Shown piece after piece: positions 20,058 through 63,044 of a DNA stretch of 64,000 bases; position 1 is the stretch's first letter; the number at the start of each line of letters is the position of its first letter. The DNA is from Pseudomonadota bacterium (GTDB lineage Bacteria > Pseudomonadota > Alphaproteobacteria > Sphingomonadales > SMXR01). The translations under genes were made by a program, and so were the position numbers. Where the stretch lies: contig JACZSK010000003.1 in the NCBI GenBank assembly GCA_022574255.1, positions 7,270 to 71,269 on the forward strand. The letters run 5' to 3'. The notes below the pieces were generated by a model. That model was not told where the DNA came from. It did not search any database and worked only from the letters and a program-made list of their open reading frames with translations.

Positions 20058-21095
20058 ATGGCACGGGTGGCACGAACACGAGCAACACTCAGGGACGTGG
20101 CGGAGCGCGCGGGCGTGCATTCGTCCACCGTTTCACGGGTCCTTAATCCGAAAACCAGACCGATGGTGTCGGAGACCGTTGCGGCGCGGGTGCTGGAGAT
20201 CGCCAACGACATGGGATACCGGGCGAACCCGTTCGCCCTGAGCCTGAAAACCAATCGCTCCTTTACCGTCGGCGTTCTTATTCCCGACATTACCAATCCG
20301 GTTTTTCCACCTATTATCCGCGGCATTGAAAAGGTGCTGGGCCCGGCCGGATATACCACAATCCTGGCCGATTCCGACGAAGACCCGGATATTGAGCAGG
20401 GCATTCTGGATCGCATGCGCGCCCGGCAGGTGGACGGTCTCATTCTCGCCACCGCGCATCGCGCCGACCAAGTGGTTGAGGAATGCGAGGCCGACGGCAT
20501 CCCATTTGTCCTGATCAACAGGACGATGGCGGGCGAGGGCATTTATTCGGTCACCAACGATGATTTTGGCGGCATAGCGATGGCGGTGGACCATCTTGCC
20601 GATCTCGGACATCGGCGTATTGCGCATTTGGCCGGTCCGCAGGATTTATCGACCGGGTTCGAGCGCCATCGCGGATATCTGGAGGCCATAAAAGCGCGCG
20701 GACTGGAGATCGATCCGGAACTGATTTTTGTTTGCCGGGCCTTCACCGAGGAACAGGGCAAGACCGGCCTCGAAGCCCTGCTCGATTCGGCCAAGCCTTT
20801 CACGGCGGTAATCGCCGGCAACGATATGCTGGCACTCGGCTGCTATGACGCGCTGGAGGACCGGGGTCTGCGCTGCCCGGAGGATATGTCGGTGACCGGC
20901 TTCAACGATATGCCGTTTGTCGATAAATTCAGGCCGCCTATGACAACTGTGCGAATCCCGCATTACGAAATGGGCAATGCCGCAGCGAATATTCTTCTCA
21001 GCCTTCTGGAAGGCGAAGACGAAGAGCCGCCAAAATCAGTGTGCCAGACGCTGGAGTTGATTGTGCGCGGTTCTACGGCGAAAGCGCGCGACTGA
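20058..21095 (+). CDS. LacI-family transcriptional regulator
   Basis: N-terminal HTH (ATLRDVAERAGVHSSTVSRVLN), then a periplasmic-binding-protein-like sugar-binding fold (VDGLILA...IAHLAGP...RGYLEA...AVIAGNDMLALG). Confidence 0.9.
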   Translation: MARVARTRATLRDVAERAGVHSSTVSRVLNPKTRPMVSETVAARVLEIANDMGYRANPFALSLKTNRSFTVGVLIPDITNPVFPPIIRGIEKVLGPAGYTTILADSDEDPDIEQGILDRMRARQVDGLILATAHRADQVVEECEADGIPFVLINRTMAGEGIYSVTNDDFGGIAMAVDHLADLGHRRIAHLAGPQDLSTGFERHRGYLEAIKARGLEIDPELIFVCRAFTEEQGKTGLEALLDSAKPFTAVIAGNDMLALGCYDALEDRGLRCPEDMSVTGFNDMPFVDKFRPPMTTVRIPHYEMGNAAANILLSLLEGEDEEPPKSVCQTLELIVRGSTAKARD

Positions 21096-25890: not shown

Positions 25891-27210
25891 TCAATATTCG
25901 TTGGCGATGGGCAGGTCCTGGGCCGGGAACAGCGTTATCACCCGCGCGCCTGTTGCGGTGACCACGATCTCCTCCTCGATGCGCGCCGCCGAATAGCCGT
26001 CGCTGGCTGGGCAATAGGTCTCCAGCGCGAACACCATGCCTTCCTTGATCTCTTCCGGATGATCGAAGGAGACCAGACGCGAGATGATCGGGCGCTCGTG
26101 CAAGGCCACGCCGAGGCCATGGCCGAACTGCAGGGCGAAGGCCTCCATTTCGCTGTCGAAACCGAACTCCTGGGCCTTCGGCCATACCTTTGCGATTTCA
26201 GCGGTGCTGACGCCGGGCTTGACCATTTCAATGGCCTTGTCCAGCCATTCGCGGCACTGGACGTAAGCGTCCCGCTGCGAATCCGAGGCGAAACCCACGT
26301 TGAAGGTGCGGTAATAGCAGGTGCGATAGCCCATATAGGCCTGGATAATGTCAAAGAACGCCTGGTCGCCGGGCCGGATGATACGGTCGGTGAAGTTATG
26401 GGGATGCGGGTTGCCGCGCTCTCCCGAGACCGCATTGATGGCTTCCACATCGTCGGAGCCCATCTCGTAGAGCATCTTGTTGGCCTTGGCGACGATATCG
26501 GATTCGCGCACGCCCGGTTTCAAATCCTCGTAGATCATCTGGTAGACGCCATCGACCATGGCCGCCGCCATGTTCAGCAGGATGATCTCGTCCATCGACT
26601 TGACCTCGCGGGCGTCGAGCATGACCTGCTGGCCGTCGCGCACCTCAATGCCCAGCTTCTGCAACTCGAAAAGCATCGGCGGCTCGACAATATCAAGGCC
26701 CAAAGGCATGTCGGCGACGCCCTGCTCGACCATCACGGCTTTAATTTCTTCCGCGGCCCCGCGCATCAGACCGGCGTCGGGCGGCACCGTGCCCCTGAGA
26801 CCGATCATGCCGGCGTGGCAGCAACCCGGTTGCAGCCAGGGCGAATGAATGCGGTGGTGAGCAGCGGCCGAGCCGAAATCCCAGAGATGCGGCTCACCGT
26901 TGCCGGTCAGCAGCGCGAAGCGTGCCACCTTGTCGCGCGCCCATTCGCCGATGGTGGTGGATGTAATGTAGCGGATATTGTTGTTGTCGAAACACAGCAC
27001 CGCGCCCAGATCCGAATCCTGCAGCGCCTTGCGCGAGCGCGCCAGCCGGTAATCATGGAGCCGCCGAAAATTGACGCGCTCCTCGAAATCGACGGCCTGA
27101 CCGCCGGGTGAGGGTATGGCGCCCCGCCAGTCGTGCCGGGGGTCGATCATATCGGGCATTATAATTCGGGGCTCGGAAATGCGCTTGTCCATGGGTTTGA
27201 CCTTGTTCAT
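25891..27210 (-). CDS. M24-fold (creatinase/prolidase/DddP-like) hydrolase, substrate unknown
   Basis: Pita-bread fold motifs: GDQAFFDIIQAYMGYRTCYYRTF, FGHGLGVALHE, GMVFALETY, RIEEEIVVT. The track start is TTG 27285; the in-frame ATGs are 27225, 27210 (GAGG 5 nt upstream) and 27192. Confidence 0.75.
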   Translation of the reverse strand: MNKVKPMDKRISEPRIIMPDMIDPRHDWRGAIPSPGGQAVDFEERVNFRRLHDYRLARSRKALQDSDLGAVLCFDNNNIRYITSTTIGEWARDKVARFALLTGNGEPHLWDFGSAAAHHRIHSPWLQPGCCHAGMIGLRGTVPPDAGLMRGAAEEIKAVMVEQGVADMPLGLDIVEPPMLFELQKLGIEVRDGQQVMLDAREVKSMDEIILLNMAAAMVDGVYQMIYEDLKPGVRESDIVAKANKMLYEMGSDDVEAINAVSGERGNPHPHNFTDRIIRPGDQAFFDIIQAYMGYRTCYYRTFNVGFASDSQRDAYVQCREWLDKAIEMVKPGVSTAEIAKVWPKAQEFGFDSEMEAFALQFGHGLGVALHERPIISRLVSFDHPEEIKEGMVFALETYCPASDGYSAARIEEEIVVTATGARVITLFPAQDLPIANEY

Positions 27211-27298
27211 GACGGCCTCGGCCATCGCCTGCAATGCTGCGGACGCTGGAATATCAAGAGGCGTGATTAAACCATCATCGGGCAACTTGCAACGGCTT

Positions 27299-36054: not shown

Positions 36055-36507
36055 ATGGTTGCTTTCACCCTTAATGGCCGGGAGGTGGATGTCGCCGCCG
36101 ACCCCGATGCGCCGCTGTTGTGGATTATCCGCGAACATCTGAAATTGACCGGCACGAAATTCGGCTGCCACGCCGGATTGTGCGGGGCCTGTACAGTGCA
36201 TATCGACGGTAAATCACGATTTTCCTGCCAGACCACGCTGTCGGAAGTCGCGGGCAAGTCGGTAACCACCATCGAGGGCCTGTCGGCCAATTCCGATCAT
36301 CCCTTGCAGAAGGCATGGGTCGCAGAGCAGGCCCCGCAATGTGGCTATTGCCAGTCGGGCCAGATCATGCGCGCCGCTGATCTGTTGTCGCGCAACCCGG
36401 ACCCCAGCCGCGACGAGATCAAGCGCCATATGAACACGAATATTTGCCGCTGCGGCACCTACCCGAGAATTGTGCGCGCCATCGAACGCGCGGCGAAGGA
36501 GGGTTAG
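36055..36507 (+). CDS. (2Fe-2S)-binding small subunit of an aldehyde-oxidase / isoquinoline-1-oxidoreductase-type molybdo-hydroxylase (IorA-like)
   Basis: 150 aa. CHAGLCGACTV and CGYCQSGQIM...CRCGTY are the two 2Fe-2S motifs of the xanthine dehydrogenase family. Confidence 0.9.
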   Translation: MVAFTLNGREVDVAADPDAPLLWIIREHLKLTGTKFGCHAGLCGACTVHIDGKSRFSCQTTLSEVAGKSVTTIEGLSANSDHPLQKAWVAEQAPQCGYCQSGQIMRAADLLSRNPDPSRDEIKRHMNTNICRCGTYPRIVRAIERAAKEG

Positions 36508-36510
36508 GCC

Positions 36511-38751
36511 ATGCAGGGCAATACAAAACACACATCGGCTGATACGGGGGCTGATACGGGCTTTTCACGGCGCGGCTTCCTCAAGGGCGCCGCCGGCATG
36601 ACCTTTGTCATCGGTGCATCGGGGCTGGTCGCCGCTTGCGGCACCGAGCAGCAGGCAGCGAAACTTGCCGACTTTGATCTTACGGTCTGGGCGACACTCT
36701 CCTCTGACGGAAAAGTGACGGTGATGGCGCCGGCGGCGGAAATGGGCCAGGGCTCGATGACCGCATTGCCGTTGATTTTCGCCGAAGAGTTGGACGCCGA
36801 CTGGGACGACATCAACCCGGTTCAGGTATCGACGCCCAAGAAGGAATTCGGCAACCCCTATTTCGGCGGGCTGCTTTACACCGGCGGCAGCCGGGCGGTG
36901 GCCGATTATTTCACCAAATTACGCATCGCCGGGGCGCAGGCGCGCAAGATATTGATGCTCGCGGCGGCGGACCATTGGCAGGTGCCGGTCGGCGAACTGA
37001 CCACCGAACCCAGCGTGGTTGTTCACGCGGCATCGGACCGGCGTCTGGGCTATGGCGAGATCGCGGCATTTGCCGAAGCCCCCGATAGTCTGCCGGAAAT
37101 CAGCGATTCGGATTTGAAGAACCCTGCGGATTTCCGCCTGATCGGCCATGATACGCCGCGCGTCGACGTGCCGCTGAAGGTCAACGGCACCGCCCAATAT
37201 GCCATGGACGTGCAGGTGCCGGGGATGGTCTATGCGGCCATTCAGCATGCGCCGGTGGAGGGCGAAAGCCCGGTCACCATCGACGACGCCGAGACCCTGA
37301 AAGTACCCGGCGTTTTAGAGGTGGTGGCGCTGGAGAATGCCGTTGCGATCATCGGCGAGACGGTGGAAGCAACCCGCTTCGGCAAGGATGTTTTGGCCGT
37401 GGAATGGACCGGTGGGGCCCCGGGACGCAAATTTTCCTCCGACGGGAATCTCGTCGATACGTCGGCTGCTGCCAATGACCTGTCTGTCCGCGGTGTGCCG
37501 TGGCGCGAAGAGGGCGATACCTACGCCGCCCTTGAGGGGGCTGCCAAGGTAGTCACCGCCGAGTATTTCGCCGACCATGTTTATCACGCCCAGATGGAGC
37601 CCTTGAACGCGACGGCGCTGGTCAACGAGACCGGCGATGCGGTGGAACTGTGGACCGGCACCCAGTCCCAGACGCTGACCGTCATTACCGCCGCCAAGGT
37701 TCTGGGTACCACCCAGGACAAGGTGACCCTGCATCAAATGCTGCTGGGTGGTGGCTACGGGCGCCGCGCCGAGCTTAAACCTACCTACGTGATTGAGGCG
37801 ATACAGCTCTCCAAGATTCTTGGCAAGCCGGTGAAGGTTATCTGGAGTCGCGAGGATGATTTGCGGAACGGCTGGTTCCGGCCCTCGACGGCGCAGCTCA
37901 TGCGCGCCGGGTTCGACGAGGACGGCAAGGTCATCGCCTGGAACCACCGCATGGCCGGGCCGTCGGTGCTGGAATTTTATAATTCCTTCCGCTGGGGCAT
38001 GGTGAAGCCTCAAGACGTTATCTCCATGCTCGGCTCCGAGGTATCCAACTTCGACATTCCCAATATCCTGGCCGAGCATGTGATGGTGGGCCGGATCGCC
38101 CGGCTGTCGCCGTGGCGCGGCGTGGCCACTGGCTACACCAAATTCGCGGTTGAATCTTTTGTCGATGAACTGGCGGAATCGCAGGGGATGGATCCGGTCG
38201 AGTTCCGGCTCAAGCGGATATTAAAGACCGATCGCACCAGGAATGTGCTGAAGGCGGTGGCGGAAGCCTCCGGCTGGGGCGGCGCGCGCGCCGAGGGCCG
38301 GGCGCAAGGCGTTTCCGTGGTCGAGTATCACGAGTCTGTTGCCGCTGCGGTATTGGAGATATCGGTGAACCGGAAAACCGGCAAGATCACCGTCCATGAC
38401 GCCTGGGTGGCCGCCGACATTGGCCTGGCAGTGCAGCCCCTGAACGTGGAGACCCAGATTGAGGGCGCGCTGATTTACGGCATCGGCCAGGCCACCAAGG
38501 AACGCGTGACCATTGAGGACGGCATGGTCCAGCAATCCAATTTCCACGATTATGAGCTAATGCGCATGCGCGACGTGCCCGATATCCATATCCAGGTCAT
38601 CGCCACCGACAACCCGCCATCGGGCATCGGCGAGCTTGCCCTGCCGCTGACCGGCGCCGCCATCGCCAATGCGTTTAAGGCGCTGACCGGAAAACGCCTG
38701 CGCCATATTCCGCTGACCCGCGAGCGGGTGCTGGAAGCGCTGAACAGCTAG
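36511..38751 (+). CDS. Molybdopterin-cytosine-dinucleotide-type hydroxylase large subunit (IorB-like), Tat-exported putative lipoprotein
   Basis: 746 aa. Twin-arginine signal (FSRRGFLKGAAG) with lipobox LVAAC. Xanthine dehydrogenase-family blocks (AEMGQGSMTALP, LLGGGYGRR, GIGELALP). Confidence 0.9.
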   Translation: MQGNTKHTSADTGADTGFSRRGFLKGAAGMTFVIGASGLVAACGTEQQAAKLADFDLTVWATLSSDGKVTVMAPAAEMGQGSMTALPLIFAEELDADWDDINPVQVSTPKKEFGNPYFGGLLYTGGSRAVADYFTKLRIAGAQARKILMLAAADHWQVPVGELTTEPSVVVHAASDRRLGYGEIAAFAEAPDSLPEISDSDLKNPADFRLIGHDTPRVDVPLKVNGTAQYAMDVQVPGMVYAAIQHAPVEGESPVTIDDAETLKVPGVLEVVALENAVAIIGETVEATRFGKDVLAVEWTGGAPGRKFSSDGNLVDTSAAANDLSVRGVPWREEGDTYAALEGAAKVVTAEYFADHVYHAQMEPLNATALVNETGDAVELWTGTQSQTLTVITAAKVLGTTQDKVTLHQMLLGGGYGRRAELKPTYVIEAIQLSKILGKPVKVIWSREDDLRNGWFRPSTAQLMRAGFDEDGKVIAWNHRMAGPSVLEFYNSFRWGMVKPQDVISMLGSEVSNFDIPNILAEHVMVGRIARLSPWRGVATGYTKFAVESFVDELAESQGMDPVEFRLKRILKTDRTRNVLKAVAEASGWGGARAEGRAQGVSVVEYHESVAAAVLEISVNRKTGKITVHDAWVAADIGLAVQPLNVETQIEGALIYGIGQATKERVTIEDGMVQQSNFHDYELMRMRDVPDIHIQVIATDNPPSGIGELALPLTGAAIANAFKALTGKRLRHIPLTRERVLEALNS

Positions 38752-40942: not shown

Positions 40943-41413
40943 ATGGATGACTGGCTGATCTATCTTTCGGGTGAAATCCACACCGATTGGCGGGATAAAA
41001 TAGAAGCGGGAGCCAGAGCAGCGGGTCTGGCCGTGGTGTTTTCGGGACCGGTGACCGACCACGCCGCCAGCGACGATTGCGGGGTGCGCATTCTGGGCGG
41101 TGAGGAAACCGATTTCTGGAAAGACCACAAGGGCGCCAAGCTCAACGCCATTCGCACACGCACGCTGATCGGCGCTGCCGATATCGTGGTGGTTCGTTTC
41201 GGCGATAAATACAAACAATGGAACGCGGCGTTTGACGCCGGATACGCGGCGGCCCTCAACACGCCGTTGATCGTGATGCACGACCGGGCATTGACCCATC
41301 CCCTGAAAGAGGTCGATGCGGCGGCGCTTGCCGTGGCGGAGACGCCCGAGCAGATTGTTCAGATTCTGAGCTACGTTATCAGCGGTGACCTCGCCGCTGA
41401 CGGGGATGAGTGA
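40943..41413 (+). CDS. YtoQ-family protein (nucleoside 2-deoxyribosyltransferase-like fold)
   Basis: LIYLSGEIHTDWRDKI...FGDKYKQWNAAFDAGYAAAL..PLIV...HPLKEV closely follows remembered B. subtilis YtoQ (VYLAGEIHSNWREEI...FGEKYKQWNTAMDASYA). Confidence 0.8.
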   Translation: MDDWLIYLSGEIHTDWRDKIEAGARAAGLAVVFSGPVTDHAASDDCGVRILGGEETDFWKDHKGAKLNAIRTRTLIGAADIVVVRFGDKYKQWNAAFDAGYAAALNTPLIVMHDRALTHPLKEVDAAALAVAETPEQIVQILSYVISGDLAADGDE

Positions 41414-41483: not shown

Positions 41484-42113
41484 CTAGTCGCGCTGATCCT
41501 TCGAGACCTTTTTGAACAGGGTCTCCACGGCGTCGGCCAGCGGCGCGAAGGTATCGCAGAGATTCGCCGTCGCCGCGTTGCTGAGCTCTTTGCTGCGAAT
41601 GCAGCCGGCCATATGATGCGCCATAACGCCGTTGCGGGCGTTCCAGATGGACGTCATGAGATTCACGCCGACACGCTCGAAACTGTTGAAGGTGACGTCT
41701 GCGGAATCAAATTCACCGAGGGCATTACCGTCGCCGTCGTGGTTTACCTTCTGGAAGATGCAGGGCACCGAGATGTTGGCGAACCAGTCCAGACCACCGG
41801 CACGACCCAGGAACCCGGCCGGTCCCGCCCCCTCGGATTCTTTCTGCAGGGCGGTGATAAAACCGGGCACCGCCAGGTCGATTAACTCGCGCTCGGTTGG
41901 TGTCAGGGTGATGCTCACGCCGTCCGCCCCGTCAAAGAAAAACGGCTCGCCCGGGAACGCAAAGGAGAAAGGATTAACTTCGCAGATATTGGTGCCCGCT
42001 GGCAGGCCCACGGCCTCCGGCGGGGGCGGCGCAATGCCGCCGATATGACCGGCCAGTGCGTTGGTCGATACCATAAGTGAAAAGGCCAGTGCCATCCCGG
42101 CACAGCCACCCAT
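41484..42113 (-). CDS. Hypothetical secreted protein (4 Cys), no recognised family
   Basis: 209-aa ORF with ATG 42113, a short signal-like N-terminus (MALAFSLMVSTNALA) and coding-like composition. Operator copy 5 lies 100 bp upstream. Confidence 0.45.
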   Translation of the reverse strand: MGGCAGMALAFSLMVSTNALAGHIGGIAPPPPEAVGLPAGTNICEVNPFSFAFPGEPFFFDGADGVSITLTPTERELIDLAVPGFITALQKESEGAGPAGFLGRAGGLDWFANISVPCIFQKVNHDGDGNALGEFDSADVTFNSFERVGVNLMTSIWNARNGVMAHHMAGCIRSKELSNAATANLCDTFAPLADAVETLFKKVSKDQRD

Positions 42114-42212: not shown

Positions 42213-42226
42213 TGCAAACGTTTGCA
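42213..42226. promoter_or_regulatory. Operator-like palindrome copy 5: TGCAAACGTTTGCA (perfect)
   Basis: In the divergent region between 42113 (-) and 42264 (+). An extra TTTGCAT half-site lies at 42201-42207. Confidence 0.7.
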
Positions 42227-42263: not shown

Positions 42264-42716
42264 ATGTTCAGGACAAATATTGCGAGGTCTGCAGCGCTGG
42301 TCACATTGCTCGCGTTCCTTGCCGGGCAGGGGGCGAGTGCGAGCGCGAGCAACACAAGCGGCTGCCACGTCGTGCAGCATTACTATTTTGCCAAGGCGGG
42401 CATGGAGGATGAAGTTTTGGCGACGCGCATCAGGGGCAATGAAGTGCGCGCGGCGCTGGGGCTGGCGACCTCCAGGTTACTGGTAATCAAAAGCTCGTTC
42501 AGCGGGCACCCCGCTGACGGGCCACTTAAGCCCGGGAATGCATCTTATTTGATGTCCGAGACAGTTTTCGCCAACCAGGAAGATGTCGCCAAAGCAGATG
42601 AAATGCTGGTCGCGTCGGAGGATTACCTGGCTGTGCGCACGAAAATGGCAGCGCTGATCGATCATTTTGAACTGGCGGTGCGGCGGTTGGTGGGCAACGG
42701 ATGCCCGACCGACTGA
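42264..42716 (+). CDS. Hypothetical secreted protein, no recognised family
   Basis: 150 aa. GGGAGAAACAGG SD. Signal peptide MFRTNIARSAALVTLLAFLAGQGASA. One Cys near each end of the mature protein. Confidence 0.5.
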   Translation: MFRTNIARSAALVTLLAFLAGQGASASASNTSGCHVVQHYYFAKAGMEDEVLATRIRGNEVRAALGLATSRLLVIKSSFSGHPADGPLKPGNASYLMSETVFANQEDVAKADEMLVASEDYLAVRTKMAALIDHFELAVRRLVGNGCPTD

Positions 42717-42720
42717 GGCG

Positions 42721-43134
42721 CTAGCGGGCCTTTTGGGCCTTGGCCCTGAATTCCCGTGCCGCTTCAGACAGATCGTAAGTCACGTAGATATCTGTTTGAA
42801 AGGCGCCCCAGGCACGCTGCTCTATGGCGCGGTTGACCTCGCGCAGGCGCGCTGGCGGCACACGAAGCGTCACAACCTGACCCAGGCCCATCATCACGTA
42901 CCATGATTCCACGGCTATGCCTTCAGGTGGAAAATTGGCCCAGAATCCCGACGCCGCTAACTTGTCCTGAATTTGCGCTAGGGTCTTCAATTGGTCGTGC
43001 TTCAGGACCACCGTCAACAGAATATAGTCATCGGGTGAGGACACATCATCGTCGTCGGCCAAAGCAAGTGTGACCCCTGTCGCGAAGGTCATTACCAGCA
43101 GGAACGCGACGATCATGTAAGTTCTTGGTTTCAT
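42721..43134 (-). CDS. Hypothetical secreted small protein (possibly DUF3303-like alpha+beta fold)
   Basis: 137 aa. Signal peptide MKPRTYMIVAFLLVMTFATGVTLALA followed by an acidic DDDDVSSPDD stretch. The family assignment is weak. Confidence 0.45.
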   Translation of the reverse strand: MKPRTYMIVAFLLVMTFATGVTLALADDDDVSSPDDYILLTVVLKHDQLKTLAQIQDKLAASGFWANFPPEGIAVESWYVMMGLGQVVTLRVPPARLREVNRAIEQRAWGAFQTDIYVTYDLSEAAREFRAKAQKAR

Positions 43135-43160: not shown

Positions 43161-43913
43161 CTAGGCCCCGGGCCGGTTCTTGAATTTGCCGTGCTCGTCG
43201 TAATAGGCGTCAATCAGCTTGTGCTTTTTCAACAATGACGGGCCCGCCACCACGAAATCCCAGAGCGCCAGAAAGCCGCCCGTCCACATGGTGCGGATGG
43301 CAATACTGATACTTCGCTGGGAGCTGATTTCGGCGATCTTGGCATGCTCGACCGTCTGCAGATTTTCGCGGTCCGTCAAAGCCGCCTTCAACCCCGCGAT
43401 GTGGGTCCAGTCACAGCGGTAATGGACCACGCCGTCGGGCCGAATGACGTAAACCACGTTGGGCATGGCGCCATAGGCGCGGTGCATTTTACCGTCCAGG
43501 GTGTCGATCAGCACCCGCCGGTGCTCGTGGTATTTTGATGTCAGCAGGCAGGCGGCGGATTTCTTGTCGTCGAAGGTCTTGTGCTGGCCGAGGCGCTCGC
43601 CGGGATGGGCCTCGCGTACATAGACCACCAGGAATTCCACGTCGGGGAACTCGGCTATCAGCGCCCGCATGTTCTCTATGTTCTTGGTATATTGCGAGCA
43701 GGTGGATGAGCCGGTTTCCAGCACCACCCATTTGCCCTTGAAATCGGATAATTTCACTTCGTTGCCGTCGTAATCGGTGGCGGTGAAATCCACCGACGGC
43801 TCGCCGGCGGCGGGGCCGACAAAGGTATCCCAGTTATAAAGCTTTATCTTGAAGCGCGGATTCAGATAGGGCATCGGCGCTTCGGGGGCCTGCGGCTTTT
43901 GATTGTCTGGCAT
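43161..43913 (-). CDS. Iodothyronine-deiodinase-like thioredoxin-fold protein (Cys in place of Sec) with a C-terminal hydrophobic extension
   Basis: ATG 43913 (MPDNQKPQ...). GKWVVLETGSSTCSQY aligns with deiodinase FGSCTUPPF. VVYVREAHPGE aligns with VYIxEAHPSDGW. VLIDTLDGKMHRAYGAMPNVVYVIRPDGVVHYR aligns with VVVDTMxNxxxxxYGAxPERLYVIxxGxIxYKG. Confidence 0.6.
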   Translation of the reverse strand: MPDNQKPQAPEAPMPYLNPRFKIKLYNWDTFVGPAAGEPSVDFTATDYDGNEVKLSDFKGKWVVLETGSSTCSQYTKNIENMRALIAEFPDVEFLVVYVREAHPGERLGQHKTFDDKKSAACLLTSKYHEHRRVLIDTLDGKMHRAYGAMPNVVYVIRPDGVVHYRCDWTHIAGLKAALTDRENLQTVEHAKIAEISSQRSISIAIRTMWTGGFLALWDFVVAGPSLLKKHKLIDAYYDEHGKFKNRPGA

Positions 43914-44073
43914 CTCAACTGCCCTCCTTTTTGAAATATTTATAGCTCTCAACTGGACCAGTATGCCGCTTGGCCCTATACCACGCCCGCCTTATGGAAA
44001 CGCTTTGTAGCGGGCACGGCCAAAGTAGAAATGGGGTGCTCGCAGCCCTAATATGACGCGAAACAGGAAAGAT

Positions 44074-44087
44074 TGCAATCGTTTGCA
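44074..44087. promoter_or_regulatory. Operator-like palindrome copy 6: TGCAATCGTTTGCA
   Basis: In the divergent region between 43913 (-) and 44179 (+). Followed by a TTGCAT half-site at 44093-44098. Confidence 0.65.
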
Positions 44088-44178: not shown

Positions 44179-44769
44179 ATGCCCCGGCTGGAATATTTGA
44201 GTGACGACGAGTTAACCCCGGAGGCCCGGGAACTGCTGCTGCTGGCTGAGCGGGCGGGATCGCCAGACCCGCGCGTGCTGCGGGTTTTGTTCAAATCCCC
44301 GGCGGGGATCGCCTGGTACCGCTATTGGCTGGCGCTGTCCAATGACGGCATCCTGCCCAAGGATTTGAAAGAGCTCTGCCGCGTGAAAATCGCCTTCGAT
44401 CATGCCTGCGGCTATTGCAGCACCGTGCGCTCCAGCGCCGCAATGGCTGCCGGGTTGACCGAGGAGAAAATCCAGCAGGTCTGGGATTTTGAGAACAGCG
44501 ACGCGTTCAGTGCGCGCGAAAAGCTGGCGCTTCGCTTTGCCCACCATTTGAAGCATGATATTGCCGGTGCCGACAACGACGCTTTTTATGCTGAATTAAA
44601 GACCGAGTTCAGCGAGCCTGAAATCGTCGAACTGGGCCTGTGGTGCGCCGAGAATGTTGGGGCTGGAAGCTTTGTGCGGACTCTGAGCATAATCACCTGG
44701 ATAGAGGCCTGCGAGTTGAACCCGCAGACGGCGGCGAATTCAGAGAAAAAACAATCTGCAGCAGAATAA
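44179..44769 (+). CDS. Carboxymuconolactone decarboxylase (AhpD-like) family protein
   Basis: 196 aa. GGAGGAG SD. CMD-type core LKELCRVKIAFDHACGYCSTVR. Confidence 0.7.
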   Translation: MPRLEYLSDDELTPEARELLLLAERAGSPDPRVLRVLFKSPAGIAWYRYWLALSNDGILPKDLKELCRVKIAFDHACGYCSTVRSSAAMAAGLTEEKIQQVWDFENSDAFSAREKLALRFAHHLKHDIAGADNDAFYAELKTEFSEPEIVELGLWCAENVGAGSFVRTLSIITWIEACELNPQTAANSEKKQSAAE

Positions 44770-44795: not shown

Positions 44796-45890
44796 GTGGC
44801 AAGTCTGAACAGAAGATGGTTTGCGGCCCCGGCGGCCGTAATGGCAATAATCATGGCCAGTAGTTTCGCCTTGACCGGCAGCGCGCTGGCCAAGACCTAT
44901 ACGCTGAGGATTGGCTCGGGCCACCCCGCAGGCCCTGCGGTCTATGTGACCATGATGCGCGACTACTTTGTGCCCGAGGTGGAGCGCCGGGTAGCCGCGG
45001 AGACCGAACACAAAATCAATTTTGTCGAGGGCTACGGTGGTTCCATCGCCAAAGTGGCGGAAACGCTGGAGGCGGTGCAGGCTGGCCTGCTGGACATCGG
45101 CGGCTATTGCACCTGTTTTGAGCCGGCCAAGCTGTTCCTGCATAATTTCCCCTATTTCGTGCCTTTTGGCCCCCAGGATTCGGTGCAGGCCATCCGCGTG
45201 ACGCGCGCGGTCTATAACCAGTTTCCCTGGCTGACCGCGCAATTCAGCGAAAGATACGGCCAGGAACTGCTGGCCCTGAACGGCTGGGATAATTATCACC
45301 TCGGCACCATCGATCCATGGGAGACCATTGCTGACCTGAAGGGCGTCAAGATTGGCGGCGCCGGGCCAAACTTGCCCTGGCTGGAATATGCCGGCTCCAT
45401 CCCCGTGCAGTCGACATTGCCCGACGGTTATATGTCGCTGCAGACCGGCGTCTATTCCGGCTGGCTGATGTTTCCTTCAGCCTACCTGAGCTTCAAGTTT
45501 CACGAGCCGGCACCCAATTACACGCTGATCGGCTTCGGCGCCATGGGCGTTGTAGCGATCACCATGAACAAGCGTTCCATGAGGCGCCTGCCGCCGGAGG
45601 TTCAGCAGATTATCCGTGAGGTCGGGCGCGCCTATGAGGCCGAGGCGGCAGAGGCGCTGCAAGCCGGACAGGTGAACGGGCTGGCGGGCCTCCGCGAGGC
45701 CGGAGCCAATGTGCGCGAATTGCCCGCTGGCGTGCGCGCCGACTGGGCCGAATCGCTGAAAGATTTTCCCAACCGCATGGCCAAGGATGCCGACGGGCGG
45801 GGTATGCCAGGGTCGGCTGTGATGCGCGCCTATATCCAGCAGGTCAAGAAAGACGGCTACGTCTGGCCCAAGGAATATGTAATCGAGTAG
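44796..45890 (+). CDS. TRAP transporter substrate-binding protein (DctP family)
   Basis: GTG start 7 nt after an AAGGAG SD. Signal peptide. The DctP-like body begins ...YTLRIGSGHPAG.... 364 aa. Confidence 0.75.
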   Translation: MASLNRRWFAAPAAVMAIIMASSFALTGSALAKTYTLRIGSGHPAGPAVYVTMMRDYFVPEVERRVAAETEHKINFVEGYGGSIAKVAETLEAVQAGLLDIGGYCTCFEPAKLFLHNFPYFVPFGPQDSVQAIRVTRAVYNQFPWLTAQFSERYGQELLALNGWDNYHLGTIDPWETIADLKGVKIGGAGPNLPWLEYAGSIPVQSTLPDGYMSLQTGVYSGWLMFPSAYLSFKFHEPAPNYTLIGFGAMGVVAITMNKRSMRRLPPEVQQIIREVGRAYEAEAAEALQAGQVNGLAGLREAGANVRELPAGVRADWAESLKDFPNRMAKDADGRGMPGSAVMRAYIQQVKKDGYVWPKEYVIE

Positions 45891-45900
45891 TGAGCCAAAA

Positions 45901-46866
45901 ATGAGCAAATTAACAATCGCCGTCACCGACCATGTTTTCCCCAATCTCGACCATGCCGAGCGCGTGCTCTCGGGCCTCGATGCCGAGATCAGGCTGGCCA
46001 GTGAGCCGACCGAGGAGGCGATCCTGGAGGTCGCCCGCGAGGCCGACGGCCTGATGGTCACTTTCGCGCAGATAACCGCCGGGCTGATCAGCGGGCTGGA
46101 GCGCTGCAAATCCATTGGCCGCTTCGGTATCGGTGTCGATAATATTGATCTGGAGGCCGCCACCAAGGCCGGCATTCAGGTCACCTATGTGCCTGATTAT
46201 TGCGTCGACGAGGTCTCGGACCACGCGTTGACATTGCTGCTGTCACTGGCCCGCAAGATACCCGAGGCCAACAGCCTTGTGCAATCGGGTCGCTGGAGCG
46301 CCGCCGACCTGGCGCCTGTCTATCGCATTCGTGGGCGCACGCTGGGCCTGGCCGGGCTGGGCAAGATTCCCCAGACCCTGGCGCCAAAAGCGCAGGCGCT
46401 GGGCATGACAGTTATTGCCGCCGACCCGTTTGTGCCGGCGGAAGTGGCCAAATCCCTGGATGTGGAGTTGGTCGATTTTGATACCCTCCTGGCGCGCAGT
46501 GATTATATTTCAATCCACGCGCCGTTGACCGACGAAACCCACCATATGTTTGATGCCGACGCGTTCGGAAAAATGAAAAACGAAGCTCTGTTGATCAACA
46601 CGGCGCGGGGGCCGCTGATCGACGAAGAGGCGCTGGTGGCGGCATTGGACGCGGGCGAAATCGGCGGCGCCGCCCTCGACGTTATTACTACGGAGCCCCC
46701 GGCAGCGGATTTTCCCCTGCTCGGTCGTGATAATGTGATCCTCACGCCCCACGCGGCTTTTTATTCGGTGGATGCCCTGGTCGATCTGCAGACCAAAGCG
46801 GCGGAAGACGTGGTGGCGGTGCTGACCGGCAAGACACCCCGCTACCCGGTCAATAAGCTGGACTGA
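45901..46866 (+). CDS. D-isomer-specific 2-hydroxyacid dehydrogenase family protein
   Basis: 321 aa. NAD motif GLAGLGKIPQ. Catalytic region LINTARGPLIDEEAL...ALDV...TPHAAF. Confidence 0.9.
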   Translation: MSKLTIAVTDHVFPNLDHAERVLSGLDAEIRLASEPTEEAILEVAREADGLMVTFAQITAGLISGLERCKSIGRFGIGVDNIDLEAATKAGIQVTYVPDYCVDEVSDHALTLLLSLARKIPEANSLVQSGRWSAADLAPVYRIRGRTLGLAGLGKIPQTLAPKAQALGMTVIAADPFVPAEVAKSLDVELVDFDTLLARSDYISIHAPLTDETHHMFDADAFGKMKNEALLINTARGPLIDEEALVAALDAGEIGGAALDVITTEPPAADFPLLGRDNVILTPHAAFYSVDALVDLQTKAAEDVVAVLTGKTPRYPVNKLD

Positions 46867-46893
46867 TAAAGCGCGGCAAAGGATATTTCCGGC

Positions 46894-47886
46894 ATGTTGA
46901 AAACAGTGATGGTGGGTCTCGGCTGGTGGGGCCGGCATATTGTGGGCGCGCTGGAGGGTTCGAAGCGCATCAGCATTGTCGGTGTCACGTCGCACAGCCC
47001 GGAAAAGCATCGTGATTTTGCCGACGAGAAGGGCATCGCGCTGTTGCCGTCATACCGGGTGGCGCTGGAGGATGCGGCTGTCGAAGCGGTAATACTCTGC
47101 ACCCCCCATTCTCAGCACGAAGACCAGGTGCTTCTGGCCTTGGCGGCGGGCAAGCAGGTTTTCTGCGAAAAGCCGTTGGCATTGTCGAAGGCCAGCGCCG
47201 AGAAGATGATTGCCGCGGCGGCGTCGGCGGGGGTCATTCTGGGCATCGGTCACGAGCGCCGCTTCGAGCCGACCATGGAAGAAATAGCGCGGCTGGCGGC
47301 ATCGGGAGAGATGGGCACCCATATGCATGTGGAGGCCAATTTTTCCCATGATATTCTGACCAAGCTGGCGACAGACAGCTGGCGCACCGCCGCCGAAGAA
47401 GCCCCAGCGGCCGGCATGACCGGCATGGGTGTGCATTTGACGGACCTGTTCATTGCCATGTTCGGGCCGATCGAGGCGGTATGCGCTTCAACTGCTGCTC
47501 GCGTGCTCGACCTGCCATCCGGTGATCTGGTGACCGTGCAATTCCGCTTTGTCTCCGGGGCGACCGGTTTTCTGTCGGCCATTTCGGCGACGCCGTATTA
47601 CGGGCGCTTTACGCTTTTTGGCGACCAGATGTGGGCTGAGGCGCGGGACGAGGGGCACCCCCAGCAGGGCGGCAAAACCAATTTAATCACCTGCGGCAAG
47701 GACGGCGTACAGCACAACCACACTTTCGCGGCCAAGGACCCGGTCCGCGCCAATCTTGAGGAATGGGCCGCGGCTGTCGCCGGCGAAGGAGACTACCGCT
47801 TCACCGACGACCAAAAAATCGGCAACGTGGCCGTTCTTGAGGCCATCGCACGCTCTGTAGAATCCGGCGGTTGGGAAGACGTCTGA
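46894..47886 (+). CDS. Gfo/Idh/MocA-family oxidoreductase
   Basis: 330 aa. N-terminal VGLGWWGRH Rossmann motif and the EKPLAL motif. Confidence 0.85.
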   Translation: MLKTVMVGLGWWGRHIVGALEGSKRISIVGVTSHSPEKHRDFADEKGIALLPSYRVALEDAAVEAVILCTPHSQHEDQVLLALAAGKQVFCEKPLALSKASAEKMIAAAASAGVILGIGHERRFEPTMEEIARLAASGEMGTHMHVEANFSHDILTKLATDSWRTAAEEAPAAGMTGMGVHLTDLFIAMFGPIEAVCASTAARVLDLPSGDLVTVQFRFVSGATGFLSAISATPYYGRFTLFGDQMWAEARDEGHPQQGGKTNLITCGKDGVQHNHTFAAKDPVRANLEEWAAAVAGEGDYRFTDDQKIGNVAVLEAIARSVESGGWEDV

Positions 47887-52965: not shown

Positions 52966-54294
52966 TCAGGGCTGGTAGCCGCGAAGGCTGGGATGGTGGA
53001 AGTCGCCCAGGCGATAGTCGCCAACCGCTTCCTCCATATGCTCCATCTTGGTGAATATCACCGGGCCGTCCTTGGTTACCAGCACATTTTCTTCCAGCCG
53101 GCAGGTCTGTGGCAGGCCCGGATGGCCGGCGAAAGTCTCGATGGCGAAATACATGTTTTCCTTGATCTCGGCAGGGAACTTCAGCGAATAGGCGCGGCTC
53201 ATCCACATGCCCTCGTAAAGCGTAATGCCGATGGAATGGGCGAATTGCTGCAGGGTGACCGTGCCGTACTTGTCGTCGTCGTAGACCGGGAATTTGTCGG
53301 CCACATCGGCGGAGGTATTGCCCGGCCTGAGATTCTCGAGCCCCGCATACAGCGAATCGTAGGTCTCGCGGTACAGGTCAATCTCCTGGACGGTCATGCG
53401 TCCGGCGCATTTCAGCGTGCGCACGAAATCCACATAATAGCCGCCCGGGCCGACCGCGTTGATGTCGACAATGAGCAGGTCGCCCTGCTGAATCATCTTG
53501 TCGGTGGCCCAGCGGCGATAGGGGCTGGTGTTGCCGCCCGACGCGACGATGATGTCATAGATAATCTCGCAGCCGCGATCGAGCATGAACTTGTGTACCT
53601 GGGCCTCGATCTGGCGCTCGGTGACGCCCGGCCTCAGCCATTCGTGCTTGATATGCCACATGGCGGCATCGCCGATGCTCGCCGACATTTTCAGCAATTC
53701 GATCTCGTCGACGGTCTTGACCACGCGGGCGCGCGACATGGCCGGCCAACCGTTGACGATCTTCAGACCGGCTTTTTCAAGAGCGTGCAGCGCCGGCATG
53801 TCCATATTGTCGATGCCGATCTTTTCCTTCTCGACGCCATGTTCCTTCAACACGTCCAGCACGCTGGCGACCATTTTGTCGGCCATCTCGCTGACCGCGC
53901 CTTCGGCCCATTGCCAGGTCATGGCCGGGCGGATGCGATCTTCGAGCCAGGGCAGGTCCATTCTGGCACAATGCAGGTCGGAGCCGGCGGTCTCGAACAG
54001 CACCGGTTCTCCGTCGCGCGGCAGTACCGCATAGCGAATGTTGATATTATATTTCCAGTTGCCCTGGTACGAGCCGGTGAGATAGCGAATGTTGGCGCCG
54101 GCGAACAGAATCAGCGCACCCAGGTCGTCGGCTTCCATCTCCGCCCGCGCCTTGGCCAGGCGTTCGTTGCGCAGGCGCTCATGGTCGACGCGCAGCTGCC
54201 AGTCGGCGCCAACCGACGCGTAAAGCCGCCGCGGGTTGGTGTGATGCTGCTCCTGAATGAAATCGGTATTCAGGTCGTATCCCTTGTATTCCAT
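52966..54294 (-). CDS. M24-fold (creatinase/prolidase/DddP-like) hydrolase, second copy, substrate unknown
   Basis: 442 aa. AAGGAG SD. Motifs GDLLIVDINAVGPGGYYVDFVRTL, FAHSIGITLYE, NMYFAIETF and RLEENVLVT. Confidence 0.75.
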   Translation of the reverse strand: MEYKGYDLNTDFIQEQHHTNPRRLYASVGADWQLRVDHERLRNERLAKARAEMEADDLGALILFAGANIRYLTGSYQGNWKYNINIRYAVLPRDGEPVLFETAGSDLHCARMDLPWLEDRIRPAMTWQWAEGAVSEMADKMVASVLDVLKEHGVEKEKIGIDNMDMPALHALEKAGLKIVNGWPAMSRARVVKTVDEIELLKMSASIGDAAMWHIKHEWLRPGVTERQIEAQVHKFMLDRGCEIIYDIIVASGGNTSPYRRWATDKMIQQGDLLIVDINAVGPGGYYVDFVRTLKCAGRMTVQEIDLYRETYDSLYAGLENLRPGNTSADVADKFPVYDDDKYGTVTLQQFAHSIGITLYEGMWMSRAYSLKFPAEIKENMYFAIETFAGHPGLPQTCRLEENVLVTKDGPVIFTKMEHMEEAVGDYRLGDFHHPSLRGYQP

Positions 54295-62998: not shown

Positions 62999-63014
62999 AT
63001 GCAAACGTTTGCAT
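62999..63014. promoter_or_regulatory. Operator-like palindrome copy 9: ATGCAAACGTTTGCAT (perfect 16-mer)
   Basis: 84 bp upstream of the second TonB-dependent receptor ATG at 62916. Confidence 0.7.
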
Positions 63015-63044
63015 ATTTTAAGTCAAAGCCTCCGTGCAAAAGAT

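Follow-up and report, generated by a model that had tools for sequence, protein, structure and literature searches.

A single-cysteine bacterial deiodinase-like protein and its LacI-type uptake and catabolic regulon

A 64,000-nucleotide stretch of the contig JACZSK010000003.1 (positions 7,270 to 71,269 of the forward strand, GenBank assembly GCA_022574255.1), from a Pseudomonadota bacterium of the Sphingomonadales and here called the window, encodes a deiodinase-like protein of 250 amino acids (aa), whose gene is denoted DIO for short. Judged from its sequence and its predicted fold, the protein belongs to the iodothyronine-deiodinase branch of the thioredoxin/peroxiredoxin fold; it is soluble, of the single-cysteine type and presumably cytoplasmic. 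Its gene is a conserved member of an uptake/catabolic regulon controlled by a LacI-type repressor, and reductive dehalogenation is tentatively proposed as its function.

Placement in the deiodinase branch and active-site residues

Among Pfam profiles the top match was T4_deiodinase (PF00837; 56.5 bits, E 3.2e-15, cutoff 27), followed at lower rank, and above their own cutoffs, by AhpC-TSA (48.6 bits) and Redoxin (29.9 bits), the AhpC-TSA score being as expected among clan relatives. The GSHPx profile (PF00255) reached 25.7 bits against a cutoff of 27 and covered the N-terminal half only, so that the protein does not qualify as a glutathione peroxidase. The best NCBIfam match, NF038285 ("deiodinase family protein"), scored 68.7 bits against a cutoff of 250, spanning only the catalytic core (positions 174-323 of a 347-position model), and by sequence comparison NF038285 is a sister group and not the present subfamily. 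When the single sequence was compared by HMMER with all PDB sequences, mouse Dio3 (4TR3) came out best (1.3e-8), with Dio2 (9H48) at 1.5e-7, while the family profile returned Dio3 at 8.5e-13 (51 bits) and Dio2 at 1.8e-12 over profile positions 22-160, the next family being that of the TlpA-like pneumococcal Etrx (7e-8, N-terminal half only). The AlphaFold2 (AF2) model, with a mean predicted local distance difference test score (pLDDT) of 89.3 and a predicted template modelling score (pTM) of 0.87, displays a peroxiredoxin-like N-terminal hairpin (strands 44-46 and 52-54, before beta1), a thioredoxin core and three C-terminal helices. Foldseek against the PDB ranked 4TR3 first (6.6e-11) and 9H48 second, ResA being close (5.6e-10).

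The original prediction, made from the letters alone, had likened the protein to the deiodinases, had reported three blocks matching deiodinases in order, and had placed a Cys at the selenocysteine (Sec) position. All of this agrees with the above rankings, in which Pfam, PDB sequence and profile searches and Foldseek put deiodinases, and not the AhpC/TSA or TlpA families, first, and with the HMMER alignments, in which the three blocks are present and aligned: GSSTCSQY with the animal GSCTUPPF (U replaced by C), YVREAHPGE with YIEEAHPSD, and VLIDTLDG..AYGAMPNVVYVI with LVLDTMAN..AYGAYFERLYVI. Cys72 aligns with the Sec site, itself occupied by Cys in the crystallised Dio mutants, and lies straight after Thr71 in the active-site motif G68-S-S-T-C72-S-Q-Y75; its codon, TGC, identifies the window protein as a Cys and not a Sec form. 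The consensus active site of 150 representatives, GS-x-T-C-P-x-[YF], resembles the animal GS-C-T-U-P-P-F more closely than the GSSTCSQY of the window protein does, and the second family motif reads Y-[VT]-REAHPG. No Sec-containing member of the subfamily was found in 80 related loci. Three representatives begin directly after the Cys column, and the one examined, P0164, was rejected as a Sec form since its truncated open reading frame (ORF) is explained by the contig end.

The catalytic surroundings of the nucleophile are also those of deiodinases. In Dio2, the proton-relay and hydrogen-bonding residues are Ser127, Thr129, Tyr157, Glu160, His162 and His182 (PMC11592359), and their Dio3 equivalents (Ser167, Thr169, Tyr197, Glu200, His202 and His219; residue set from PMC11592359, four of the six numbers being counted along the alignment) align with S69, T71, Y98, E101, H103 and H111. 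These positions are invariant or nearly so in an alignment of 28 sequences and, across a near-full-length set of 103 representatives, keep Ser in 98, Thr or Ser in 103, Tyr in 99, Glu in 102 and the two His in 99 and 87, respectively. Further invariants of the 28 sequences are T71, Y75, the block Y98-V-R-E-A-H-P-G-E-R107, H111, E130, R132, D137, H144, P151, N152, H164-Y-R166 and W169; across the 103 representatives, R100 is kept in 102, P104 and G105 in 103, R132 in 98, D137 in 101, H144 in 100, P151 in 100 and N152 in 92. The stretch Y98-VREAHPGERLGQ-H111, near-invariant in the same set, is the counterpart of Dio3 Y197..H219 with a 9-residue deletion, 7 residues separating His103 from His111 against 16 between His202 and His219 of Dio3.

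In comparison with Dio1-3 (PF00837; 4TR3, 9H48), the protein thus shares the GS-x-T-[U/C], Y-x-x-EAHP and DT...YGA...Y-V-I blocks, the six-residue relay and the peroxiredoxin-like hairpin, but differs in (i) its Cys in place of Sec, (ii) the missing N-terminal transmembrane anchor, its N-terminus MPDNQKPQAPEAP being hydrophilic and the Pfam match beginning at profile position 85, (iii) a loop-D that is 9 residues shorter and lacks Trp207, (iv) the replacement of the proximal and distal cysteines, Dio3 Cys168 and Cys239, by Ser70 and the invariant Arg132, (v) an added 68-aa C-terminal helical extension, and (vi) its bacterial, presumably cytoplasmic setting in catabolic operons, thyronines not being expected as substrates. 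Cys72 is the only invariant cysteine of the 28 sequences, C122 not being conserved and C167 being Ser or Val in 3 of the 28.

The same features bear on an identity as an envelope protein-disulfide reductase of the TlpA/ResA type or a copper chaperone of the SCO1 type. ResA and Etrx structures are close in Foldseek and phmmer, and "TlpA family" or "SCO1/SenC" is the name given to some entries in databases, but the protein has neither CxxC nor CxxxC, the second position being the invariant Tyr75 of C72-S-Q-Y75, and neither a signal peptide nor a membrane anchor; moreover, SCO1-SenC scored 15.5 bits against a Pfam cutoff of 22.8, the NCBIfam ResA model 24.8 bits against 170, and the TlpA-like matches cover the N-terminal half only. 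With no CxxC and no export signal, motif and topology contradict such an identity, which we consider highly improbable.

Position 72 itself is Cys in 94 of the 103 representatives, Ser in 5, Asp in 3 and Ala in 1. The Ser, Asp and Ala variants (about 9%) keep R100, E101, H103, R132, D137, H144, P151 and N152, and their sequences suggest that they are paralogues with altered or non-redox chemistry (representatives P0127, P0172, P0188, P0198, P0208, P0220, P0222, P0224, P0232 and P0252). These natural variants, together with the lack of a second conserved cysteine, would fit a non-redox ligand-binding or scaffold subunit, or else an enzyme that uses residue 72, be it Cys, Ser or Asp, as a covalent nucleophile together with the His/Glu network in a triad-like manner. 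Such a role seems improbable for the family, since Cys is kept in 91% of the representatives, the characterised relatives within the fold all use this residue for redox chemistry, and the linkage with a CxxC partner described below fits redox recycling.

Distribution of the family and its C-terminal extension

Bacterial deiodinase-like proteins with Sec and with Cys were described from the Sargasso Sea in 2005, with a suggested redox role but no assigned function (Zhang, Fomenko and Gladyshev; PMC1088965), and a 2026 review places PF00837, UxxC in its Sec form, among the selenoproteins whose functions "remain largely" unknown (PMC13188914). The bacterial members had indeed been predicted to be essentially uncharacterised. 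Considering that Cys homologues have been known since 2005 and that some are named "deiodinase-like protein" by NCBI, the existence of such proteins is not new, and the window protein adds a member to a widespread, uncharacterised bacterial family of a kind already known. The 2005 proteins are likewise bacterial, marine, PF00837-positive and functionally unassigned, but the regulon and partner context is absent from their description, while the UxxC of the review's Sec form (PMC13188914) contrasts with the C-x-x-[Y/F] and one conserved Cys of the present subfamily.

A word-indexed search retrieved at least 406 homologues, the best 120 of which are 57-93% identical over their full length and 229-274 aa long, with PF00837 recorded for 120/120; NCBI names among the homologues range over "deiodinase-like protein", "peroxiredoxin", "TlpA family" and "SCO1/SenC". 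A profile search against 1.84 billion representatives at 50% identity yielded 161 proteins when E was limited to 1e-30 and 972 when it was limited to 1e-10. In a scan of one genome per species, relatives lay in 455 stretches. The best 80 of these all come from metagenome-assembled genomes (MAGs) of marine or uncultured bacteria, which belong to the Alpha- and Gammaproteobacteria except for one of the Polyangiaceae; related loci are given with the prefix L. Several MAGs carry two or three DIO paralogues in differing contexts (L010/L025/L028 in MAG OFTM101; L001/L002; L003/L009), and no second paralogue is present within the window.

Some relatives are unusual in architecture or surroundings. 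In L082 (407..1714; P0163) a deiodinase-like domain is fused to a class-I S-adenosylmethionine (SAM) methyltransferase domain (TPMT, 34.9 bits, cutoff 26). Thiols, halides and selenium or tellurium species are methylated by relatives of TPMT, and the fusion, known from one 3-kb contig only, is a weak functional clue. No additional domain was recognisable in P0221 and other long forms. The distant relative P0164 (L081, 1..1371) adjoins DUF190 and the fluoride-channel gene crcB, which was not found near DIO in other loci, so that halide-handling neighbours remain anecdotal; another relative adjoins an O-methyltransferase, and the further contexts of distant relatives are short contigs that give no information.

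The C-terminal extension (about 68 aa, residues ~183-250) is conserved in the 28-sequence alignment, with invariant R200, G212, G213, A216, D219, F220, H231, D235, Y238, G242 and F244, G213 and D219 being kept in 103 and 89 of the 103 representatives. AF2 predicts its helices at 193-198, 202-211 and 214-241 (pLDDT 85-91), and the high pTM suggests that it packs on the core. No solved relative of it was found in the PDB at E up to 10, and no Pfam profile matched there. A roughly 70-aa extension with a hydrophobic segment had been foreseen, and it is real and conserved, but the segment is not transmembrane: the maximum 19-residue Kyte-Doolittle hydropathy in the whole protein is 1.27, below transmembrane level, the invariant Asp219 lies inside it, and the model is a single compact unit. 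A membrane anchor at this place was therefore rejected. Dimers of B type in peroxiredoxins are stabilised by a C-terminal extension that is absent from Dio enzymes (PMC11592359). The tail DAYYDEHGKF (43164..43211, residues ~235-250) resembles the QYTDEHGEVCP of 2-Cys peroxiredoxins without their resolving Cys; kinship between the two was rejected, since the likeness is seen only in a MAFFT alignment with Prx2, has no statistical support and is not accompanied by a match to the Pfam profile 1-cysPrx_C.

The LacI-type regulon and the gene neighbourhood

The palindrome TGCAANCGNTTGCA, which resembles operators bound by LacI-family repressors (that of PurR, and cre), occurs as 9 exact 14-nt copies in the window (Table 1). 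Eight of the nine lie between ORFs taken as genes, while that at 63000 falls inside a TonB-receptor ORF as called, which also holds one-mismatch sites at 63035 and 63045. The window also encodes a LacI-family repressor, the presumed binder of the palindrome. In the related loci 14 exact copies were found in 0.97 Mb, against about 0.06 expected from the 12 specified bases. The palindrome precedes units containing DIO, as collected in Table 1 together with one-mismatch sites, that of L007 lying just upstream of DIO; a LacI-family gene stands beside DIO operons in L001, L016 and L019. DIO is thus a conserved member of a LacI-type repressor-controlled uptake/catabolic regulon, which argues that it acts on a pathway intermediate and does not serve general stress defence. 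Both the operator and the gene set are found again in the gammaproteobacterial MAG loci L009, L011, L014, L016, L017, L019 and L021.

Genes on the operator sides within the window comprise two TonB-dependent receptors, a major facilitator superfamily (MFS) transporter, TauE, an NHL/PQQ-like protein and the M24 and IorAB-like proteins of Table 1, besides the unit formed by a carboxymuconolactone decarboxylase (CMD)/AhpD-family protein, DctP, a 2-hydroxyacid dehydrogenase (2HADH) and a GFO/IDH/MocA oxidoreductase, which is probably one operon. That DIO is divergent from an AhpD/CMD-type CxxC protein was part of the original prediction, and both the Pfam CMD match and the CxxC confirm it, the neighbour being genuine and recurrent; in NCBIfam it is YciW-related/peroxidase-related. 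CMD accompanies DIO in 6 loci and at least 3 arrangements, CxxC being kept: in the window it is the immediate, divergent neighbour of DIO, in L017 and L019 it adjoins DIO in the same orientation, and in L003, L004 and L011 it lies within a few kb. The CMD proteins of the window and of L019 are 34% identical. This CxxC protein is a possible recycling partner. DctP-2HADH is likewise divergent from DIO in L003, L004 and L005, and DctP only in L001. The predicted marine catabolic island for aromatics or halo-aromatics is not evident from the regulon contents, these being TonB receptors, DddP-like M24 proteins, an IorAB-like pair, TauE and sugar-type dehydrogenases.

No universal DIO neighbour emerged; contexts are instead several lineage-specific syntenies, namely (i) FrsA-like hydrolase > DIO > MFS_1-like transporter, with OsmC, Amidohydro_2 and CoA-transferase III close by, (ii) FAH > aldo-keto reductase (by eye) > short-chain dehydrogenase/reductase > DIO, (iii) DctP divergent from DIO, and (iv) IorB-like molybdoenzyme > DIO. 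An IorB-like gene is near DIO in 16 of 78 loci and directly upstream in L002, L006, L011 and L021.

Two M24 (creatinase/prolidase-fold) proteins of the window each stand beside an operator, and M24 relatives (cluster c91) adjoin DIO in L011, L016 and L021. Their best NCBIfam match, full length, is the dimethylsulfoniopropionate (DMSP) lyase DddP, at 104 and 120 bits against a cutoff of 600. These two DddP-like enzymes, TauE-type anion exporters and a weakly DMSP-lyase-like cupin in the regulon, the methyltransferase fusion and the O-methyltransferase neighbour mentioned above, and the metalloid/redox context in which related Sec families are discussed (PMC13188914) could point to a thiol-dependent reductase acting, through a sulfenic-acid cycle of Cys72, on another electrophilic group of a small molecule, such as a quinone, an N-oxide, a sulfoxide, a sulfoxonium or a species of selenium or tellurium. 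We regard this as unlikely, given that the DddP-like scores are all far under the cutoff, the fusion is known from one contig, such chemistry is not known from any characterised enzyme of the branch, and nothing ties the protein to any particular compound.

The DIO ORF begins with ATG at 43913 (protein MPDNQ) and ends with the stop codon at 43161-43163; a longer ORF with a TTG start (to 43952) is not required. The Rfam scan of the window gave no match, hence no riboswitch or RNA of the selenocysteine insertion sequence (SECIS) type, and no site passed in a sigma-70 promoter scan of the DIO/CMD intergenic region. Beyond DIO, the gene of a 137-aa protein starts 27 bp past the DIO stop, and those of 150 and 209 aa flank the operator at 42213, the 137- and 209-aa proteins having signal-peptide-like starts; none of the three has a significant Pfam or NCBIfam match or a homologue in the 80 related loci. 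A YtoQ-type, nucleoside 2-deoxyribosyltransferase-like gene is unusual among the surrounding catabolic genes.

Table 1. Features of the deiodinase-like gene, its neighbours and operator sites in the window, and operator (op) arrangements in related loci
Feature	Position or locus	Strand	Basis
Deiodinase-like protein coding sequence (250 aa + stop)	43161..43913	-	ORF, Pfam, PDB matches, AF2/Foldseek
Ribosome-binding site AGGAGG	43923..43928	-	9 nt before ATG at 43913, read from sequence
Cys72 codon TGC	43698..43700	-	Residue aligned with deiodinase selenocysteine
EAHP block and shortened loop-D, Y98-VREAHPGERLGQ-H111	43581..43622	-	Invariant in 28/28 sequences
Thioredoxin/peroxiredoxin-like core, residues ~36-182, including N-terminal beta-hairpin	43368..43808	-	AF2, Foldseek, Pfam (residues 36-165)
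C-terminal three-helix extension, residues ~183-250	43164..43367	-	Conservation, AF2 helices
Operator TGCAATCGTTTGCA in divergent CMD/DIO intergenic region	44074..44087	.	Exact palindrome copy
CMD/AhpD-family protein, 196 aa, CxxC C77-G-Y-C80 at 44407-44418	44179..44769	+	Pfam CMD 34.6 bits
Downstream of CMD: tripartite ATP-independent periplasmic (TRAP) DctP, D-2-hydroxyacid dehydrogenase, GFO/IDH/MocA oxidoreductase	44796..47886	+	Pfam, NCBIfam
LacI-family repressor, candidate operator binder	20058..21095	+	Pfam LacI + Peripla_BP; NCBIfam RbsR/CytR/PurR-like
TGCAANCGNTTGCA copies (starts)	27300, 28233, 30791, 36013, 42213, 44074, 47983, 54444, 63000		Exact matches
M24 protein	25894..27285	-	Best NCBIfam DddP
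M24 protein	52969..54294	-	Best NCBIfam DddP
IorA/IorB-like [2Fe-2S]/molybdopterin hydroxylase pair	36055..36507, 36511..38751	+	Twin-arginine-type N-terminus RRGFLKG by eye
YtoQ-type protein	40943..41413	+	Pfam 221.9 bits
209-aa protein	41484..42113	-	
150-aa protein	42264..42716	+	
137-aa protein	42721..43134	-	
op > MFS > CMD > DIO	L017, L019		
op > MFS > DIO	L014		
M24 < op > IorA > IorB > DIO	L011, L021		
op ~140-190 bp upstream of DIO	L009, L016		
One-mismatch sites	L001 (op > LacI > DIO), L007, L013		

Proposed function and its meaning

Considering that (i) the closest homologues are deiodinases, (ii) the Dio-specific catalytic network is retained, (iii) regulation is of the catabolic type, (iv) a precedent is provided by Bmp8, and (v) the setting is marine, dehalogenation is favoured, and we would give a probability of roughly 35% to the protein being a reductive dehalogenase. 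If so, the Cys72 thiolate would attack an electrophilic substituent of a small-molecule intermediate in the regulon's pathway. This substituent would most likely be a halogen, taken off formally as X+ in the manner of the deiodinases, and the carbon would be protonated by the relay. The resulting Cys-S-X or sulfenic acid would then be resolved by an external dithiol, for which the co-regulated CMD/AhpD-type CxxC protein is the best candidate, while the extension might stand in for the animal membrane anchor and long loop-D, closing the site or dimerising.

Several known systems make this chemistry plausible for a Cys enzyme. Sec-to-Cys mutants of Dio are still active, at a rate about 1000-fold lower, and Dio enzymes can be reduced by dithiothreitol without their extra cysteines (PMC11592359). 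A natural non-selenoprotein deiodinase of amphioxus deiodinates triac, as stated by the title of its report (Klootwijk et al. 2011, cited in PMC8143656), which to that extent shows that selenium is not obligatory; the likeness is one of description only, the amphioxus protein being, unlike the bacterial one, an animal enzyme with an iodothyronine-derived substrate. Bmp8 of the marine Pseudoalteromonas, a reductive debrominase dependent on thiols (PMC5577590, PMC7918430), removes one bromine from tetrabromopyrrole, its cysteines being proposed to become oxidised to a disulfide (PMC5577590), and is annotated as a carboxymuconolactone decarboxylase homologue (PMC7918430). It shares the Pfam family CMD with the divergent neighbour, a likeness at family level only, but is a relative of that neighbour and not of the deiodinase-like protein, and it is biosynthetic, not catabolic. 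On this basis one could go further and suppose that DIO and CMD (the Bmp8 family) form a two-component, thiol-driven dehalogenase under LacI control, stripping bromine or iodine from an imported natural organohalogen in marine proteobacteria, a more specific proposal that we hold to be rather unlikely.

A number of observations weigh against dehalogenation. Selenium accepts halogens far better than sulfur does. The shortened loop-D without Trp, together with the lack of a clear equivalent of the Dio3 Arg275 clamp, means that the substrate must differ from thyronines, and the Ser, Asp and Ala variants at position 72, which keep the other invariants, indicate that redox chemistry at this residue is not universal. 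Any role of the extension, be it in lining the active site or in dimerisation, is presumed. No halogen-specific gene was recognised in the regulon by Pfam or NCBIfam, and PMC1088965 and PMC13188914 contain no activity data for bacterial deiodinase-like members. As to regulation, DIO had been predicted to be under operator copy 6; the operator is present in the intergenic region, but it lies 92 bp from the CMD start against 161 bp from the DIO start, so that control of the window's own DIO copy is presumed mainly from other genomes. Finally, OsmC-like genes recur near DIO (two clusters, about 18 loci; c14 by Pfam, c43 by eye), like CMD in independent arrangements, and OsmC-like and AhpD-like neighbours belong to classic hydroperoxide-reductase families.

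This last point leads to a peroxiredoxin-like hydroperoxide reductase, in which Cys72 would form a sulfenic acid with an organic hydroperoxide or H2O2, possibly generated as a side product by oxidases of the regulon, and would be recycled by the AhpD/CMD protein. Mycobacterial AhpC is recycled by AhpD, and the likeness to AhpC/AhpD of Mycobacterium lies in a peroxiredoxin-fold Cys enzyme encoded beside an AhpD/CMD-type CxxC protein. The AhpC-TSA and Redoxin scores above cutoff, the peroxiredoxin and Bcp structures among the Foldseek matches, and the peroxiredoxin-like redox cycle of the deiodinases themselves (PMC11592359) are in line with such an activity. On the contrary, the PxxxTxxC of AhpC, and PxxxT/SxxC generally, is missing, Thr adjoining the Cys and Leu65 occupying position -7. 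In a MAFFT alignment with Prx2 and BCP sequences, which is indicative only, the catalytic Arg of peroxiredoxins falls on Asn152 after Pro151, and their active-site loops are 4 residues longer than those of Dio3 and the deiodinase-like protein. Deiodinase matches also beat peroxiredoxin matches by more than 7 orders of magnitude at profile level, the abundance of invariant charged residues points to a specific ligand, and DIO is found in LacI-operator uptake/catabolic operons, not in a peroxide-stress regulon. Hydroperoxide reduction is held to be somewhat unlikely, and reductive dehalogenation is retained as the preferred proposal.

For some 20 years, the deiodinase-like proteins of bacteria have remained an unexplained curiosity. 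The present locus defines a large, well-conserved one-cysteine subfamily with a diagnostic C-terminal extension, and the catalytic network of the animal deiodinases predates thyroid signalling. Function becomes more testable, with a probable recycling partner in the CMD CxxC protein and a repressor-controlled regulon whose inducer could be found. Should the protein prove a peroxidase, the peroxiredoxin clan would gain one more ordinary member. If it were a dehalogenase, it would represent an oxygen-tolerant, cofactor-free way of removing halogens and would offer an origin story for the thyroid-hormone deiodinases; and if the two-component dehalogenase with CMD were true, dehalogenation would be the original function of the deiodinase family, far older than thyroid hormones.

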